Positions 718 through 37,745 of a stretch of DNA of 37,745 nucleotides are shown one piece after another. Made by a program: the position numbers and the translations under genes. Within the stretch, counting starts at the first letter, position 1, and every line of letters begins with the position of its first letter. The notes beneath the pieces are model-generated. The model was not told the DNA's origin. It worked only from the letters and a program-made list of their open reading frames with translations, and did not search any database. Origin of the DNA: a virus (taxonomy: Duplodnaviria > Heunggongvirae > Uroviricota > Caudoviricetes); IMG/VR virus record IMGVR_UViG_2541047874_000005, one strand, 5' to 3'.

Positions 718-1233
718 TTATTCCTCCAGTAAATCAACACGGCGGGTAAGTGCGCTGATACTCTCTGTCAGCGCATCCACCTGGCTGACAACAGCACGCA
801 GACACCACCAGAGAAGCTCCTCTTTCCGGAAGCGATAACGGCTTCCTGCTTCGGTTGCAGGGCGAACAAGAACCCTTTCCGCCTGTCGGGTAAGCACACG
901 GGTTGTCCCGCTCAACAGCTCCCCTTCATCCGAATAAATCGCTGGCTGAACCGGAATATCTTCATACTCTTCCGGTATATCTTCGTACTGTGCCTCCTCC
1001 GCTTCCCACGAATCCAGACAAAATGCGCTGTATTTCCGCCAGTCCAGACCGTGTTTCTCCATCACGGCTATCGCGGCCTGGACTGTCGGCCCGGCGTGCA
1101 GACGCGCGTCCTCGCCCTCCTCCTCAATTCTCTGTAACCAGCGCCACACGCCCGGAAGCCGTGCTATTTCTGCAAATGCCGCGTTTTCGGCTGCCGTCGC
1201 ATCGCGCGGTGTATCCTTTAACGTCGCATCCGA
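718..1233 (-). other. Putative peptidase-S74-like autoproteolytic chaperone domain of the tail fibre (last ~171 aa)
   Basis: SDATLK begins at residue 781 (Ser codon TCG at 1233..1231 on minus strand); pattern S-D-x-x-L-K then hydrophobic helix and terminal heptad-like [17 protein letters not shown]. Confidence 0.45.
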
Positions 1234-3573
1234 CACAACGGTCGGCGAGTTGCAGAGATACACGCTCCGGAACGCTTTGTTGGGCGCACCCAGGTCGCTG
1301 GTATTGTTAACCGATGGCCGGAATGCACCGTTAATATCTGTATCCATCTGCATGAATGCAGTGCCGTCACTACGGGCTGCAATTACATAAGCGTCAGCAG
1401 AATCGTCATAAATACCCAGATTCCCGACTGTTGATACCTGGAAAGCTCCCGCCTTCAGCGTGGTGCTGATGGTCATGCGCTTCTGGGTTTCGTCATCCGA
1501 TTTAATATTCACGCCCTGCAGGTATGCCACATTCCAGCGATTTGGCGATGACCCCAGATTCATTGCCTTGTCCTGGTCGGGATGAAATGACGGCGAGACC
1601 GGACTCAATAATACAGACCAGGTTTCACTGCCATCGGTGCAATAAAGCCTTGTGCGTCCCGCCGACTGAGTATCGTTCATTGAGTAAAGGTTAATCCCGC
1701 CACCGCTCAACAAATCCACGTCAGCGCGTATTTCCAGACAATCGTGCACGGCGTTCAGTCGGTGTTTCCACTGAACGTAGCGGCCTGTGTATTCTCCGGT
1801 TCGGAACGCATCCCCGAACAAACGAAAAACAGCAGCAGAAGTGTCTGTATCCGGAGCCTCCTTTCTGACCTCAAATAACGGGCGATGCGAGCGCAGATTC
1901 TGCTCATAGGCTGCCACCTGGAAGTCTTCATTGGGTGACAGGGCAATATTTACAGCATTGGGACTCAGAAAAAGGCTGGCATGGCTGTCAGGAAACGCCA
2001 CGCCGGAGTCCACCAGATAGCCTGTGCCGTCGTAAGCCTCCACGGAAACCACAGCTTTGCTGCGTTTTGTCGCCACGCCACACGTATAAGACTTCGTGGC
2101 ATCATATTTCGTTGCAGCCGCCGTTCCATATGCTGTAGGCGTCCAGTAAGATGGATTCACCGGGGAACGGCCAGAAAAATTTGTTGCACGTGCTGCAAAG
2201 TATGCCCCCTCAAAAGAAACCACATCGGCTGTCTGACACCAGAAATCCATATCGAGCAGATACAGTTTTCCGTTATGGAGAGCCAGCCCTTCGGCTTCCT
2301 GCAAAACGGGATACCCCAGCTCTGCATTCCCCAGCATTTTCTGGCGGCCATACCTGGCACGAACGCCATCCACATTGAACTGTCTGACAACTTCGCCCGT
2401 TGACAGGTTATATACAACAATGCGGTGAGTCAGAAATACGCCTGTATAACCGTAATAAGCAAACAGATAATGACCATCGCTGGCCATCCCCTGAAATGCC
2501 TGCGACACCATTGGCTGAGTGGACAGATAAATCCGGTGTTTAAACGTCAGAGAGGCGCGATCGAAAACATAAACTGTGCGGCGATCATCCCTGTTGTAAT
2601 GAAGATGAACTGCTTCATTACTTGACTGAACAATCAACAGGCTTCCGTCTGCCGACAATGCCACCGTTATAATTTCATCCCCGGTAAAAAAGTCAGAGGT
2701 GAAAATCTCCGTACGGGTGACATCTGTCAGACTGGTGTCAGCCCCATTCCAGTTGATGATATTCACACCCTTGCCGTCAGCGGTCGGGGTATACAGCATC
2801 ACGCGACCGTCTTCACATACAGCCCCGATACTCTGGTGACCAATATCAGCGAAAACGGGAGAAAACGAAATGACCGTCGGGTTTTCGTTTTCTCCGTCAG
2901 GGTTAAATGTCGTTTCAACAATCCTTACGCCACCCGATACAGGCTGATGCAGAAACATTCTGGTTCCCTGCGGCGTATCACAGATACAGAACCCCTGGCT
3001 CATATTATCCGCGCCGTCAAAAATACCGGCGTAGTCGATATCATGAATTACTTTATGCTGGAGGGCGTCGTAATCAATGATGTCGCGGCGCAGAGAAATA
3101 TCCGCCGATCCATCAAACTCAACACCGTCAATCCTGACTGGCGTCTTAAGCTTTGATGCGGTAGCTGCGTTACCGTCCAGTTCACCAGCAACACCACCAT
3201 TGAAACTCTGCCTGCCGCTCCACGTATTTTCTGTGCTTAATAGTGGGATCTTTTCACCGCTGCTTCCTGTCTCTCTTAAACCAAGATTTTCGAGAGCAGT
3301 TTTCACTGTGCCATCCAATTTGATGTCGCCAAACGGATTCTTGCGGCTTAACAGCAGCGAACGAAGCGCGGTAAGCAGCTGGTCATGCCGCCCCTTCTCC
3401 AGGCTGGCACCGGATGCTTCCACAACACTGCAAAGCTCTTCCTGCAACATGTCAAAGTAGTCATCATCCAGATCGGTGGCAGGCGTACCGGTCTGGGGGT
3501 TGCCACGGGTAAAACCGTTCTTACCCGCGCCGAACTTATCCTTCTGCGCGGTTTTCGTGTCTATACGATGCAT
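718..3573 (-). CDS. Tail fibre / receptor-binding protein with C-terminal S74-like intramolecular chaperone domain
   Basis: 951 aa; N-terminus [26 protein letters not shown]...[12 protein letters not shown] is the conserved phage tail-fibre N-terminal anchor; sits after the gp48-like gene as in Mu; C-terminus has SDATLK (Ser/Lys dyad spacing), [17 protein letters not shown] and a terminal coiled coil. Confidence 0.85.
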
Positions 3574-21571: not shown

Positions 21572-21600
21572 CAAAAAACCGCCCGTGGAAAGTGGGCGGT
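21572..21600 (-). terminator. Rho-independent terminator after the GrlR-like moron
   Basis: Minus strand CCGCCCAC-loop-GGGCGG hairpin followed by TTTTTT. Confidence 0.55.
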
Positions 21601-21616
21601 TTAGGAGAGAATCGAT

Positions 21617-21937
21617 TTAAATCAAATTGCCGATAAATTTCGCCTGTACAGACAGAGTCGCACCAGGAACACCAGCAATTCCACCTTCAAGGTAATAACC
21701 ATCCCCAATATCTCTCACAGAGAGATCCATCACATAATCGTTAAGGCCTGCAATAACGTTTTGTGCTGAAGGGTTATGGCGGGATACATGAAGTTTCAAT
21801 ACCCCATCTTGTACACGCCCCTGATAGGTAAACCCAAAATCACCACCATTAACCGCATTATCCTTCACAACGACCGTGCCATTGCCAACATCATTATGAC
21901 CGCTTCTGAACACAACAAAATAAATGCCGTCTTTCAT
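21617..21937 (-). CDS. Moron: GrlR-like small beta-barrel protein (tentative family)
   Basis: 106 aa; MKDGIYFVVFRS...GNG...GGD...YQG...L.V.RHN matches my recollection of GrlR-family proteins; lower GC than neighbours; own terminator; AT-rich upstream region. Confidence 0.5.
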   Translation of the reverse strand: MKDGIYFVVFRSGHNDVGNGTVVVKDNAVNGGDFGFTYQGRVQDGVLKLHVSRHNPSAQNVIAGLNDYVMDLSVRDIGDGYYLEGGIAGVPGATLSVQAKFIGNLI

Positions 21938-22029: not shown

Positions 22030-22299
22030 TCATTTTTTTTGCATGATGTGACCACGCTCAACGTCAATCCTTCTGATGTCAGCTTTATCGGTATTACACT
22101 GCGCCAATGCAGACAACAAGGCGGCATTCAGATCTAAGCTCGAGCCCCACGTAAAATGATCAGGTAAATCAGGCTGAGGGGTTTCAGCCGTCAGGCTGGC
22201 TGGTAACGGAACTACCGGAACCTGGACGTAAACTGTTCGCGTACTTCCGCAACCGGTCAGCAGCGGCAGCAGGCACAGGACGTGAAGCACAATCATCAT
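22030..22299 (-). CDS. Rz1: o-spanin (Rz1-like outer membrane lipoprotein)
   Basis: Lipobox LLTGC, proline-rich mature region; +1-frame overlap with the 3' part of Rz and extension beyond it. Confidence 0.65.
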   Translation of the reverse strand: MMIVLHVLCLLPLLTGCGSTRTVYVQVPVVPLPASLTAETPQPDLPDHFTWGSSLDLNAALLSALAQCNTDKADIRRIDVERGHIMQKK

Positions 22300-22576
22300 C
22301 CGCAACAGCCACTTTGATATCTTCCTGGGTTCTCTGTGACTCCAGTGCGATCTGCTGTTTTGCATGTTGATTCGCCTCCTGAATGATGTTCGTTATTGCC
22401 ATAGTACGCAGAACATTCGCGGTGATAGTCTCAGTAGAATCAGCTCGCTGTTCCGCAGCATCAGCACGCTTCTGCTCCTCCAGAAACTTTCCATGATAGT
22501 GATTCGCTGACCAGACAAGACCACCAGCGACACAAGCAATAAACGTTAAAATGAGCGCCCAATAACTCATCTTCAT
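22184..22576 (-). CDS. Rz: i-spanin (Rz-like)
   Basis: 130 aa; N-terminal TM helix then charged helical periplasmic domain; directly downstream of the endolysin. Confidence 0.7.
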   Translation of the reverse strand: MKMSYWALILTFIACVAGGLVWSANHYHGKFLEEQKRADAAEQRADSTETITANVLRTMAITNIIQEANQHAKQQIALESQRTQEDIKVAVADDDCASRPVPAAAADRLRKYANSLRPGSGSSVTSQPDG

Positions 22577-23187
22577 ACCAGCAGCGCCGCCCGCGCCTTG
22601 TTGTATCGGACCTTACGATCCTCAATACCGTTCAAACCGCCGTTAATGATGCGCGTAACACGGTTAATATCGGCACCGTAGATCATGCAACCTTTAGAGG
22701 TGTAGAACCATGCAGCTGAGCGCGCAGCCTGTAGTTCCTGTTCCAGTTGTTCAGGTGAAGTCACCAGATCTAACTTCAGCGCCGCGCCACAGATGCGATA
22801 ATTATGGAGGCCAGTGATTTGAATTAATCCTCTACCACGATATTTCCAGCCATCACCTGGTGCTTTGTTACCCAGTCGGTTGCTATACACCAGATTGGCA
22901 ATAGCATCCTGACGAGCTGCATGTCCGGATGTTCTGCCAAGGGCATCAGCCTGCTGCTGTGTGATCCTCTTTCCGAACGTCGCCACCAGCGCAGATGGTG
23001 TGTAGTTAAAATTTTCAACTACGGCGCTAAACCCCATCGACTCATGGCCTACCTGAGCGATAAACATTGCCTGATCCGCTGGTGCTGTAATGCCGAATTC
23101 CTTCATCGCCGCATCAATGTGCGGAAACCAGCGCGCAGCCAGCCCGGCGCTAATACCAGCCGCCTTTTGAAATAATTGTTGGTTCAT
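22573..23187 (-). CDS. Endolysin, glycoside hydrolase family 19 (chitinase-like)
   Basis: 204 aa; GHESMGF and YRGRGLIQITGLHNY match GH19 catalytic motifs. Confidence 0.85.
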   Translation of the reverse strand: MNQQLFQKAAGISAGLAARWFPHIDAAMKEFGITAPADQAMFIAQVGHESMGFSAVVENFNYTPSALVATFGKRITQQQADALGRTSGHAARQDAIANLVYSNRLGNKAPGDGWKYRGRGLIQITGLHNYRICGAALKLDLVTSPEQLEQELQAARSAAWFYTSKGCMIYGADINRVTRIINGGLNGIEDRKVRYNKARAALLV

Positions 23188-23468
23188 TAGTGCCTCAGAT
23201 GATCAACCAGACGTGCAACGTTGCCTCTGACGGCCACCAGCACGGAAAGAAAAATAGTGTTCGCCACGATAATGGGCCATGAGGAATGGGGATAAATCCC
23301 ACAGAGATAGGCCAACGGAACAGCACTGTATGTAACAGTAATCAGCCAGGCTAAACGTGAAACCCAAGGACGATGCCGCGAATCACCACGACGATAAAAC
23401 ATCAGAGTAATAACAACACAAGCACATAACAGCGCATTTATAGTTGCTGTCGGGTCATTTAGCTCCAC
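23187..23468 (-). CDS. Holin-like/antiholin-like membrane protein
   Basis: 93 aa, 2-3 TM helices, charged C-terminus; immediately upstream of endolysin. Confidence 0.55.
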   Translation of the reverse strand: MELNDPTATINALLCACVVITLMFYRRGDSRHRPWVSRLAWLITVTYSAVPLAYLCGIYPHSSWPIIVANTIFLSVLVAVRGNVARLVDHLRH

Positions 23469-23841
23469 CTGAACCTCCCCGGCGCGTTATGAGCGCCACC
23501 AGCGAGCCGATATCCTGATTATTCAGGAACGTCAGGATTTTAACGGCTAAAGCAGAGACGATTACGGCACCAATAGCATCCAGAGGTTTATCACTGTATC
23601 CGGTCAAGTTCGCCAGCTTGGAGCCAACCAACCCAGAGCAAAGAATCCCGGCAATATATGACACGATAAAATATGCCAGTCGGCGCGATGCACTCAGATC
23701 TGCTGCTGTTGCTATGTAGAATACAGCCCCTGCAAATGCGCCAAATACAACGCCGTAATCAGTTCCGGTCAGCAGTCCATAAACACTGGCACCCGTCAGG
23801 GCACCACCAGCCAGCCCAGTACCGGAAATCGGATCGGACAT
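23455..23841 (-). CDS. Putative holin
   Basis: 128 aa, Gly/Ala-rich TM helices; first gene of the lysis cassette. Confidence 0.55.
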   Translation of the reverse strand: MSDPISGTGLAGGALTGASVYGLLTGTDYGVVFGAFAGAVFYIATAADLSASRRLAYFIVSYIAGILCSGLVGSKLANLTGYSDKPLDAIGAVIVSALAVKILTFLNNQDIGSLVALITRRGGSGGAK

Positions 23842-24328: not shown

Positions 24329-25081
24329 TTATCTTGTCACTTTTCTCAATTGTGTCTCTGCATATGCTTCTTCCTGCCAGCACTTTGTAACCAGTTTATC
24401 AATGACATCTGCATATCCTTTGTACCACTGATAATCCGTCAGATCCGGTACCAGCTTCTGGACATGATGCCGCGCCAGTGTGGTTGGTAAACGGCTAAAC
24501 CGGTTTCCATTGCAACGCCCACAAATCTTATAAACAGGCGCACCATGAAGCCGGGTTCTTTTTTCATCCAGTACAATACCTTTCCCCTTACACCCTCTGC
24601 ACGCTGTGCTGACCTCTCCCTTACCATGACAATGCTGACATAGTTCCTTCACCCACTCTTCCTTGATAACAGATTCCCCGCTTCTGGAGTGTTTCACCAC
24701 TTCGCGCAATACATTATGAAATCCAGTACCAGCACAATGCTCACAGCGAGCCTTACTTGCCGCAGACCTGGAATAATCAGCAAAGGCAAAATTCACAAGG
24801 TAAGGGATGATCTGTAACCGGGTTTCTTCACTCAATTTGTTCAATGTCGGGTTATCCAGTGCCATCGCGTAATTGAGCAGACCTTCAATCGCAAACTGAG
24901 GATCCTGAACACCAACTTTTGCCAGGAATAAGGCAAACCCAAGCGGTGCTTTCGACTGCACCATCCCCTGCGCAGCCATTACATCCGTAATTGTTAAACC
25001 ACCAGAGCCTGTCGCCGGTGCGTCATCGCTCAGTTTTGGAGATTTCGGGGAGTAATATTTCGGTAAGGCTTCAAGGTTCAT
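24329..25081 (-). CDS. Q: Late-gene antitermination protein Q
   Basis: About 250 aa from the ATG at 25081; multiple CxxC/HCH zinc-finger-like motifs; directly upstream of the late promoter/terminator and lysis genes. Confidence 0.75.
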   Translation of the reverse strand: MNLEALPKYYSPKSPKLSDDAPATGSGGLTITDVMAAQGMVQSKAPLGFALFLAKVGVQDPQFAIEGLLNYAMALDNPTLNKLSEETRLQIIPYLVNFAFADYSRSAASKARCEHCAGTGFHNVLREVVKHSRSGESVIKEEWVKELCQHCHGKGEVSTACRGCKGKGIVLDEKRTRLHGAPVYKICGRCNGNRFSRLPTTLARHHVQKLVPDLTDYQWYKGYADVIDKLVTKCWQEEAYAETQLRKVTR

Positions 25082-25094
25082 GCTCGTTCTCCAC

Positions 25095-26090
25095 TTACGC
25101 CAGCACGCCAATTGCCAGCGCACGATCGATAAAACGAAATATCAGCTCCAGCTGGGAGCCATACTTCTCTTCAAATGCCACGGTATCCGCATGCAGCTCG
25201 TCGTGATGCTTTCTGCACAAAGGCAACACAAAGAGGTCATGCGCTTTTGTACCCATTCCCCCCTGACCGTGGCCTATCAGGTGGTGGGGATCATCAGCTG
25301 GCTTTCCACAACATGCACACGGCTGTGTCTTAACCCAGCGCGTGTACTTTTCATTAACCCAGCGGCGACGTTTTGGGCGTAACATAAAAGACTCCGGCGA
25401 CTCCGGATCCACTTTCAGCGCCAGCACCTTTTTCGCTTTATCCTGGATAATGCTGGTGGCAGGAACCGAAGGAACAAGGTCACTCTCCCGGGTGACAGAC
25501 GGCACAACAGGCTTCGGTAATCTCAGTGCCTTACGGGCTGCACTTTCCGGTAAGGCATCCGCCAGGTCATTACGAACCAGCCACCAGCACAGTTCCGGCA
25601 TTGTCACAACGTGACTGTCATCAAAACCGAGATCACGGCGCACAACAGATAACACCCAGCGGGCACAGTTATCCGTTGCCATTGATTCCAGCCGTTCCGT
25701 GAACTGATCGCGCAACTGGTTATCGCAGTGCCAGCACAGACGGATTGCGCCCGGAGCGTGCCGCATTGTGGTCATGTTCTCGCTGTGCCAGTCGGAATGA
25801 GGCCACTGGCAGCCTTTTTCACGAAGTAACCAGCTTTCAAGACATTCCACGCCACCAGCACGACGGATCACTGCCTCATTGCGGAACACGGCCCGAACGG
25901 CAGGATCATCCGCCAGCGGTTGTGATGCCGCCGGAACGGCACCACTGGCGAAAGATGAATAACGTTCCGGCTCAGGCTCCAGCAGGACACGCCCCTGCAT
26001 AAACAGGGGCATCAGCTCTGAACCTGGCCTGAACAATACGATCCCCATACGCGGGGCAATTTCAGGGGTCAGTAGTGCTCTCACGGTCAC
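25095..26090 (-). CDS. DUF968-like prophage protein with C-terminal Cys/His cluster
   Basis: 331 aa; C-terminus CACCGK...HHLIGHGQGG...CRKHHDELH suggests a zinc-binding/HNH-like fold; recalled similarity to ydfU-type genes preceding Q. Confidence 0.55.
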   Translation of the reverse strand: MTVRALLTPEIAPRMGIVLFRPGSELMPLFMQGRVLLEPEPERYSSFASGAVPAASQPLADDPAVRAVFRNEAVIRRAGGVECLESWLLREKGCQWPHSDWHSENMTTMRHAPGAIRLCWHCDNQLRDQFTERLESMATDNCARWVLSVVRRDLGFDDSHVVTMPELCWWLVRNDLADALPESAARKALRLPKPVVPSVTRESDLVPSVPATSIIQDKAKKVLALKVDPESPESFMLRPKRRRWVNEKYTRWVKTQPCACCGKPADDPHHLIGHGQGGMGTKAHDLFVLPLCRKHHDELHADTVAFEEKYGSQLELIFRFIDRALAIGVLA

Positions 26091-36683: not shown

Positions 36684-36709
36684 ACCCGTATATGTACGGG
36701 TTATTTTTC
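36684..36709 (+). terminator. Terminator after the xis-like gene (overlaps the convergent gene's stop)
   Basis: ACCCGTA-tatg-TACGGGT hairpin followed by TATTTTT. Confidence 0.55.
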
Positions 36710-37249
36710 TTTATCACTATCTTTTCTTGATTTGAACAATCCACTAACAACGAAACCAACCAAACCAACAATACTAATTGTACTTGTACCTAGTAATGCA
36801 ACGATCGCTTCAACTGGAGGCTTTCCTTCATGTGCAATAAGAAACGATGTAAACATTGCGACAACGAATAAGCACCAACACGACATAAACCAAACCGTGA
36901 ATGAGGCCATTTTTGTCCGAAGCTCATTGTCTATTTCTTTACCAGTTGCGTCAGCTATCTTATCCCGTACTTGTGATTTGAGCATATCAAGCTGAGCTTG
37001 AAGACTGTCCATTCTGTTCTGCTGCATAAACTCATGCAATGCACCAGTATTAGAACCAAACTCTTCTGCCTCCAGAATAGCTTTATTTTCTGAAGAAGAA
37101 TCATCGTCGCTCTCATGATTAGACGGCTCAAATGCAGATTTAAAAATCTGTTCTTGACTGTCAGTAGAGTTTAAGGATGCTTCAGAGCGACCATTTTCAA
37201 CACCTGCGGCCGCTCCGATAAGTTTATAGATATCTGAATTGTGAGACAT
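36701..37249 (-). CDS. Small membrane protein, candidate toxin/effector partner of the Panacea protein
   Basis: 182 aa; acidic Ser-rich N-terminal region, helical middle, two C-terminal TM helices; AT-rich; 22 nt after the Panacea gene. Confidence 0.6.
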   Translation of the reverse strand: MSHNSDIYKLIGAAAGVENGRSEASLNSTDSQEQIFKSAFEPSNHESDDDSSSENKAILEAEEFGSNTGALHEFMQQNRMDSLQAQLDMLKSQVRDKIADATGKEIDNELRTKMASFTVWFMSCWCLFVVAMFTSFLIAHEGKPPVEAIVALLGTSTISIVGLVGFVVSGLFKSRKDSDKEK

Positions 37250-37271: not shown

Positions 37272-37745
37272 TCAGAGGCCCTGACATTGCTGTCGGTTAT
37301 TCAATAAATCATGATAATAAGCCTTGATCGCATCATTTGAGATGATTGACGAGCCAATACCATTATAAGCTTGTGACCAAGGCGTACCAGGCATATGAGT
37401 TAGAGTTGATAACTCAATTCCATTTTTCGAGCCGTAAAATTTATAAACAGCCCCTATAATGCTCTCTGCTTGTGGATCCATAGTAACAATGCCACCAAAA
37501 GGAGCTACTGCTACATTCGTAACAGGTTTATTCCCATAATCTTTGAAAGCATCGTACATTCCAGGAATAACTGGACCGTACTTCCACGCGGAGACACATT
37601 CATTGAGCAAAGGCTTACCTGTTAATGCTAAATAGTAACCATGTGCAATATAAGTAAGCTTCTGCAGTTGCATGTGGGTCAGAGGATTATGATGTTGGTT
37701 TCCCAACGTTATGAATTTATTGGCTATTTGTACCGGGCTGTACAT
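37272..37745 (-). CDS. Panacea-domain (DUF4065) protein, putative PanA-type antitoxin
   Basis: 157 aa; PLTHMQLQKLTYIAHGYYLALTGKPLL...AWKYGPVIPGMYDAFKDYG matches my recollection of the Panacea hallmark; ATG coincides with the window edge, so the true start and upstream region are unverified. Confidence 0.7.
   Translation of the reverse strand: MYSPVQIANKFITLGNQHHNPLTHMQLQKLTYIAHGYYLALTGKPLLNECVSAWKYGPVIPGMYDAFKDYGNKPVTNVAVAPFGGIVTMDPQAESIIGAVYKFYGSKNGIELSTLTHMPGTPWSQAYNGIGSSIISNDAIKAYYHDLLNNRQQCQGL

Follow-up and report, generated by a model that had tools for sequence, protein, structure and literature searches.

The window analysed here, i.e. the whole stretch of 37,745 nucleotides, carries between positions 22030 and 22576 two partly overlapping open reading frames whose products resemble the inner and outer membrane subunits of a phage spanin. 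The whole spanin locus lies on the minus strand, as do all the genes and motifs for which coordinates are given below; neither this strand nor the start codon had been given in the first-pass annotation. The i-spanin (Rz-type) ORF occupies 22184..22576, with its ATG at 22576 and its stop at 22184, encodes 130 aa and is assigned through PHROG 214. The o-spanin (Rz1/LysC-type) ORF, encoding a lipoprotein precursor assigned through Pfam PF23793, occupies in its longest form 22030..22365 (111 aa; ATG at 22365, stop at 22030). That the Rz1-like gene begins inside Rz in the +1 frame, as had been proposed from the letters alone, is borne out by an offset of 211 nt from the Rz start, and the extension past the Rz stop, earlier put at about 150 nt, measures 154 nt from the last base of that stop (22184 vs 22030).

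The o-spanin gene thus starts within the i-spanin gene, in another frame, and ends past its stop, which is the overlapped architecture. Embedded, overlapped and separated spanin arrangements were defined in Kongari et al. 2018 (PMC6139136), after Summer et al. 2007, and phage P2 is the overlapped example in Fig. 1b of that study. The earlier reading of the locus as an overlapped and not an embedded pair is supported by the Pfam LysC match, by PHROG 214, by the position of the pair after the endolysin gene and by the SpaninDB entry of phage SfV. The embedded, lambda-type class is ruled out, the Rz1 stop at 22030 lying beyond the Rz stop at 22184. A unimolecular spanin of the T1 gp11 type was rejected as well, as the Rz1 ORF has one hydrophobic peak (residues 18-41) and none at its C-terminal side, and a separate i-spanin is present. 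The doubly coding segment, delimited by its coordinates and set apart by its nucleotide identity and by the synonymous divergence of Rz, is 22184..22365, i.e. 182 nt when counted from the ATG at 22365; the overlap would be 122 nt with a TTG start at 22305 and 116 nt with an ATG start at 22299.

Features of the two proteins

The Rz ORF matches the PHROG 214 Rz-like spanin profile at 4e-47, residues 1-129 aligning with profile positions 5-131 of 176, and the pair matches PHROG 214, 456 and 3001, all of them Rz-like spanin profiles. For Rz, neither Pfam nor NCBIfam gives a match above threshold, so that its assignment rests on the PHROGs, on annotated homologues and on topology. Histidine-kinase NCBIfam models that align with Rz far under their cut-offs were taken as noise of a helical, low-complexity sequence. 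The hydropathy profile has a single peak (Kyte-Doolittle 2.53 at residues 7-21), and the predicted transmembrane segment covers approximately residues 5-23 (22508..22564), with Kyte-Doolittle windows above 1.6 starting at residues 2-10; it falls within the first helix of an AlphaFold single-sequence model. In that model (pLDDT 79.8) helices at residues 5-93 and 103-116 are followed by a flexible tail, and the break between them, at residues 94-102, holds Cys96 (DDDC-ASRPVP). The codon of this predicted periplasmic cysteine lies at 22289..22291, and its motif, DDC..RPVP, is conserved in 8 of 8 aligned i-spanins. The layout predicted for Rz is that of an i-spanin, with one transmembrane domain at the N-terminus and helices over most of the periplasmic domain. 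A PDB sequence search returned no match at E <= 1 for either the Rz or the Rz1 product.

The Rz1-like product matches Pfam PF23793, "Rz1-like lysis system protein LysC", with 66.1 bits (E = 2.7e-18; gathering threshold 27 bits) over profile positions 2-68 of 69, and PHROG 456 at 4.4e-27. The lipobox LLTGC, which had been described as readable, was found at codons 35-39 of the ORF (22249..22263), and the codon of Cys39, the predicted lipidation and signal peptidase II site, is at 22251..22249. Ahead of the lipobox, the hydrophobic run MMIVLHVLCLLPLL forms the h-region, and the Kyte-Doolittle 15-residue maximum of the ORF (2.43) falls at residues 23-37. The cysteine is followed by Gly at +2 and Ser at +3, so that Rz1 carries no Asp inner-membrane retention signal. 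In a test at the level of the pattern, LTGC fits the spanin lipobox consensus [LVI][ASTVI][GAS]C, as quoted in PMC6139136, without Asp at +2, and the lipobox cysteine is invariant in the o-spanin alignment. The "proline-rich body" described in the first-pass annotation held for only a part of the protein: the mature part, 73 aa from Cys39, has 6 Pro (8%), all of them within its first 30 residues, and the last 43 have none.

The AlphaFold single-sequence model of Rz1 is of low confidence (pLDDT 58.9), especially outside the signal helix, and was used as a weak pointer only; it has a signal-like helix at residues 18-37, an extended proline-rich stretch and a low-confidence helix at 76-95. This predicted C-terminal helix surrounds the conserved motif SLDLN..LLSAL.QCN.DKA, in which the predicted periplasmic Cys90 (22096..22098; motif QCNxDKA) occupies an invariant alignment column. 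Both Cys96 of Rz and Cys90 of Rz1 are kept in every relative examined, a conservation that fits the intermolecular disulfides proposed for two-component spanins (PMC6139136).

Coding in both frames

When the six frames of the window were scanned with a loose, PROSITE-like lipobox core pattern that had to have a start upstream of it, 10 matches were found vs 4.4 ± 2.2 in Markov-1 simulations, one of the ten being the Rz transmembrane segment. The lipobox pattern alone is therefore not beyond chance, and the scan, being non-discriminating, was excluded from the evidence; the significance of the Rz1 ORF derives instead from homology, conserved geometry and signatures of selection. This near-chance frequency is one of two observations that would suit a reading in which the +1 frame is open within and after Rz by chance and holds no gene. 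The other is that the GenBank records of phages SKA5 and 118970_sal3, in which Rz is annotated, leave the Rz1 ORF out.

Homology and geometry argue for a gene. The tblastn search with the Rz1-like product matched 73 phage records, at about 70-77% identity in SfV and Klebsiella phages and at about 45% out to Mu, D108 and the APSE phages, the distant matches beginning at the lipobox. At least 551 IMG/VR stretches encode a relative; the best 80 were taken as loci, and the 77 that could be parsed comprise 47 distinct o-spanin sequences. In 77/77 of these the o-spanin ORF is in the +1 frame, has an ATG exactly 38 codons ahead of the cysteine, overlaps Rz by 182 nt and carries an L[TS]GC lipobox, and in 0/77 does Asp occur at +2; the best 80 loci are all close relatives (70-98% identity) and add little depth beyond the GenBank phages.

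Selection points the same way. Compared with eight relatives, the tail that is read only as Rz1 has pN of 0.23-0.38 and pS of 0.74-1.0, values which indicate that it is under purifying selection. Within the overlap, the synonymous divergence of Rz from the five closest of the eight (SfV, SfIV, SfII, Mulock and 118970_sal3) is 0.00-0.39, and in the part read only as Rz it is 0.69-0.92 (vs SfV, SfIV, SfII and Mulock). The DNA of the overlap shares 78-94% identity with that of SfV, SfIV, SfII and Mulock, and the singly coding flanks share 52-63%. Synonymous sites are thus frozen only in the overlap, which is the signature expected when both frames are read, and the locus makes a clean textbook example of this effect of dual coding. 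Set against the LysC match at E = 2.7e-18, over the gathering score, the tblastn matches as far as Mu and APSE, the selection acting on the non-overlapped tail and a frame intact throughout the 77 relatives, a chance open frame is scarcely conceivable, and we consider that reading refuted as far as sequence analysis can refute it.

Start codon of the o-spanin gene

Whichever start of Rz1 is used, the mature lipoprotein is identical; what the start sets is the length of the signal and of the overlap. The most likely start is the ATG at 22365, to which we give slightly better than an even chance. It is preceded, with a 9-nt spacer, by the Shine-Dalgarno sequence AGGAGG (22375..22380), whose anti-SD duplex of -10.3 kcal/mol is the strongest in the locus. 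The product would then have a 38-residue signal with a basic n-region of 22 residues (six Lys/Arg and one acidic residue). An ATG that gives Cys39 recurs in SfII, Mulock, a Yersinia phage, Enterobacter phage CobraSix and APSE-1; its A and T belong to a codon of Rz, and it is kept though the Rz residue encoded there varies (His, Asn, Asp). APSE-1 has no other ATG, GTG or TTG at least 11 codons upstream of the cysteine in the open frame. Moreover, the start equivalent to ATG 22365 is the one used by PGAP, in the SfV record and in the CPT annotation of Mulock.

The same spanin pair may have an Rz1 that starts internally, at TTG 22305 or at ATG 22299/22296, with a conventional signal of 16-19 residues and an overlap of 116-122 nt; the upstream 20-22 codons of the +1 frame would then be open only as part of a conserved region of Rz. 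The PROSITE PS51257 rules place the lipobox cysteine at 15-35, with a Lys or Arg within the first seven residues. The ATG at 22365 puts the cysteine at 39, beyond that range, and the form starting at TTG 22305 (MRMMIVL...), with Cys19 and an Arg within the first seven, alone agrees with all three rules, whereas the internal ATG forms have no Lys or Arg in their n-region. An internal start would also agree with the 93-aa o-spanin of SfIV in SpaninDB, which corresponds to a later start, with the shorter curated signal of Mu, where the lipidated residue is Cys29, and with the divergence of the n-region sequence in distant relatives. Yet the internal starts TTG 22305 and ATG 22299/22296 have a Shine-Dalgarno pairing of only -2.3 to -3.3 kcal/mol, very weak vs the -10.3 kcal/mol before ATG 22365, APSE-1 offers no alternative start codon downstream of its Cys39 ATG, and that ATG has been retained despite the His/Asn/Asp variation in the overlapped Rz residue. 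Conservation of the start codons themselves is non-decisive, as the Cys39 ATG and the Cys16 ATG are both found in 77/77 relatives (the Cys17 ATG and the Cys19 TTG in 72/77). An internal start is a serious contender, to which we give somewhat under an even chance.

If the ATG at 22365 is the start, a further idea may be put forward, for which we hold out only modest hope: the o-spanins of the SfV/Klebsiella/Yersinia/APSE group would all be made from the upstream ATG, with a 38-residue signal whose n-region possibly has a role of its own. An Arg/Lys/His-rich n-region, fixed in length (Cys39) across diverged phages, would in that case be more than a by-product of the overlap; perhaps it slows the export or maturation of the o-spanin or couples its translation to that of Rz.

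Lysis cassette, relatives and proposed function

The pair stands at the end of a lysis cassette. On the minus strand, antiterminator Q is followed, in this order, by two holin genes, the GH19 endolysin gene, Rz/Rz1, a GrlR-like gene, an HNH endonuclease gene and the small and large terminase genes. Q lies at 24329..25123 (Pfam Antiterm, 179 bits), and the two tandem holin-family genes, which match PHROG 198 and 217 (both holin), lie at 23455..23841 (128 aa; Pfam Phage_holin_8, 119 bits) and 23187..23468 (93 aa; Pfam Phage_holin_3_7, 71 bits). These two genes, of different Pfam families, overlap by 14 nt ahead of the endolysin gene. The endolysin (22573..23187; 204 aa) matches Pfam Glyco_hydro_19 with 29.8 bits and the PHROG 181 endolysin profile at 9.6e-87, and its stop overlaps the Rz start (ATGA); neither it nor either of the spanins has an NCBIfam match.

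Between the o-spanin stop and the HNH and terminase genes lies the GrlR-like gene (21617..21937; 106 aa), named "GrlR family regulatory protein" in RefSeq. It scores under the curated cut-offs of both Pfam GrlR (24.1 vs 26.8) and NCBIfam PRK14051 (38.5 vs 205), and matches PHROG 2483, of unknown function, at 8.8e-52; in SfV nothing occupies this moron-like position. At approximately 21575..21605 on the minus strand a hairpin with a T-run after it is readable, a feature absent from the terminator scan list.

Over the structural half of the window, identity to Shigella phages SfII, SfI, SfIV and SfV is about 97%. The lysis segment shares 99% identity with Escherichia phage SKA5 and 100% with the E. 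coli O7:H4 MIN14 chromosome; judged by its sequence, the element is an SfV-like (SfV/SfII-like) temperate phage or prophage of E. coli. A prophage can keep intact genes and be defective, in which case the pair would no longer serve lysis. Prophages are often cryptic, and the window is matched in E. coli chromosomes, with a match in 690 of 5426 genomes (at least 80% of the segment in 64). We nevertheless think this improbable, as all five lysis ORFs are intact, the segment is 99% identical in SKA5, which was deposited as a complete 37.6-kb phage genome, and the structural region remains about 97% identical to that of SfII, SfI, SfIV and SfV. We are highly confident that the locus encodes a two-subunit phage spanin and that this is the final component of the cassette by which an SfV/SfII-like temperate phage, either integrated in E. 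coli or an isolate from it, lyses its host.

How such a pair would act can be inferred from the established models of lambda Rz/Rz1 and P2 LysB/LysC, which cover export, lipidation, sorting, binding and fusion alike. Rz1 would be exported, lipidated on Cys39, cut by signal peptidase II and, with Gly at +2, sorted by the Lol pathway to the outer membrane. Rz would remain anchored in the inner membrane, its C-terminal part reaching into the periplasm. The two proteins would bind through their periplasmic domains, and the disulfide-linked complexes would thread the peptidoglycan mesh until the GH19 endolysin, let out by the holins, has broken down the wall. Once freed, the spanin complexes would draw the inner and outer membranes together and fuse them, thereby doing away with the outer membrane, the final obstacle to release.

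Overlapped spanin pairs have reportedly been described since 2007. The present pair is itself already known, as it belongs to an ordinary, catalogued overlapped family (SfV/SfIV-type i-spanin, Mu-type o-spanin) that is listed in SpaninDB with the same 182-nt overlap. There, SfV is entered as "ovl", frame +1, with an overlap of 182 nt, i.e. 0.463 of its 393-nt i-spanin gene, and an o-spanin of 112 aa, and SfIV has a short o-spanin of 93 aa with an overlap of 139 nt. SfV and SfIV were grouped as one i-spanin group (Kongari et al. 2018, PMC6139136), and the "Mu" o-spanin family has seven members, namely Mu, D108, ENT47670, SfIV, SfV, APSE-1 and APSE-2 (PMC6139136). Homologous pairs are annotated as i-spanin and o-spanin in SfV, SfIV, SfII, Klebsiella phage Mulock and Mu.

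The closest likeness is to SfV, which has a 130-aa Rz, the +1 frame and the 182-nt overlap as here; the overlap segment is 94% identical at the DNA level (22300..22365 being 100% identical), and the o-spanins of SfV and SfIV are about 77% identical to ours, with the lipobox LLTGC and the conserved cysteines in common. In contrast, the 5′ part read only as Rz and the 3′ tail read only as Rz1 are only 58-60% identical to SfV DNA, SfV carries an R gene of 477 nt and only one S gene in place of the GH19 endolysin and the two holin genes, and it has no GrlR-like gene after Rz1. The Mu gp23/Mu_55 and APSE-1 P14/P16 pairs are overlapped as well and their o-spanins belong to the same family, with 45-48% identity over the mature part, the lipobox LTGC and the QCNxDKA and DxC..RPVP motifs; Mu differs in its curated lipidated Cys at 29 instead of 39 and in a cassette with a SAR endolysin and a releasin. 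P2 LysB/LysC, the archetype of overlapped pairs, shares the +1-frame overlap and is the namesake of PF23793, matched here over threshold. P2 is absent among the tblastn matches listed, and so is taken to be more distant than the Mu/SfV group.

The lambda Rz/Rz1 pair is alike in combining a type II inner-membrane protein with an outer-membrane lipoprotein, in the +1 frame and last in the lysis cassette; the sequence similarity is weak (PHROG 13, 8.8e-05), and lambda Rz1 is wholly embedded in Rz, whereas the present Rz1 ends 154 nt beyond the stop of Rz. Mature lambda Rz1 has 40 residues, about 25% of them Pro. The mature Rz1 described here has 73 residues, 8% Pro and a predicted C-terminal helix.

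The cassette is mosaic around the pair, with a junction at approximately 22172, 12 nt after the stop of Rz. On the upstream side, from 22172 to the holin genes inclusive, 118970_sal3 is 98% identical, and it is only 56% identical in the Rz1-only tail. SfV shares only 22172..22378 (92%), in which the 66-nt island 22300..22365 is 100% identical, with both flanks at 58-60%. The extreme C-termini of the o-spanins vary in both length and sequence among the 47 variants. The record NC_031940.1 (Salmonella phage 118970_sal3, 77 kb) matches the spanin region in two places: near 74-76 kb lies the 98%-identical cassette, and near 36.4 kb an o-spanin of 73% identity; this record may join two prophage-like elements.

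The practical value of these results lies in annotation, for public records each carry half of the pair. In RefSeq/PGAP, the identical ORF of E. coli MIN14 is named lysC (336 nt) and the 130-codon Rz is unannotated; an Rz feature lies under the match in 0 of the 12 best E. coli RefSeq matches. The GenBank records of SKA5 and 118970_sal3 hold the other half. The biological weight is small, the additions being an annotation note, the alternatives for the Rz1 start codon and the correction of the proline content.

Elsewhere in the window, the gene at the edge (37272..37745) codes for a SocA/Panacea antitoxin-domain protein (66 bits) and is adjoined by a 182-aa ORF without a Pfam match (36701..37249); the two may form a toxin-antitoxin or defence pair in the early region of the prophage. 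At the opposite end, a 951-aa ORF (718..3573) has a C-terminal Peptidase_S74 (endosialidase chaperone) domain; it falls within the first 3.3 kb or so of the window, which is not common to the SfII/SfV-like phages, and probably represents an exchanged tail fibre or tailspike module.
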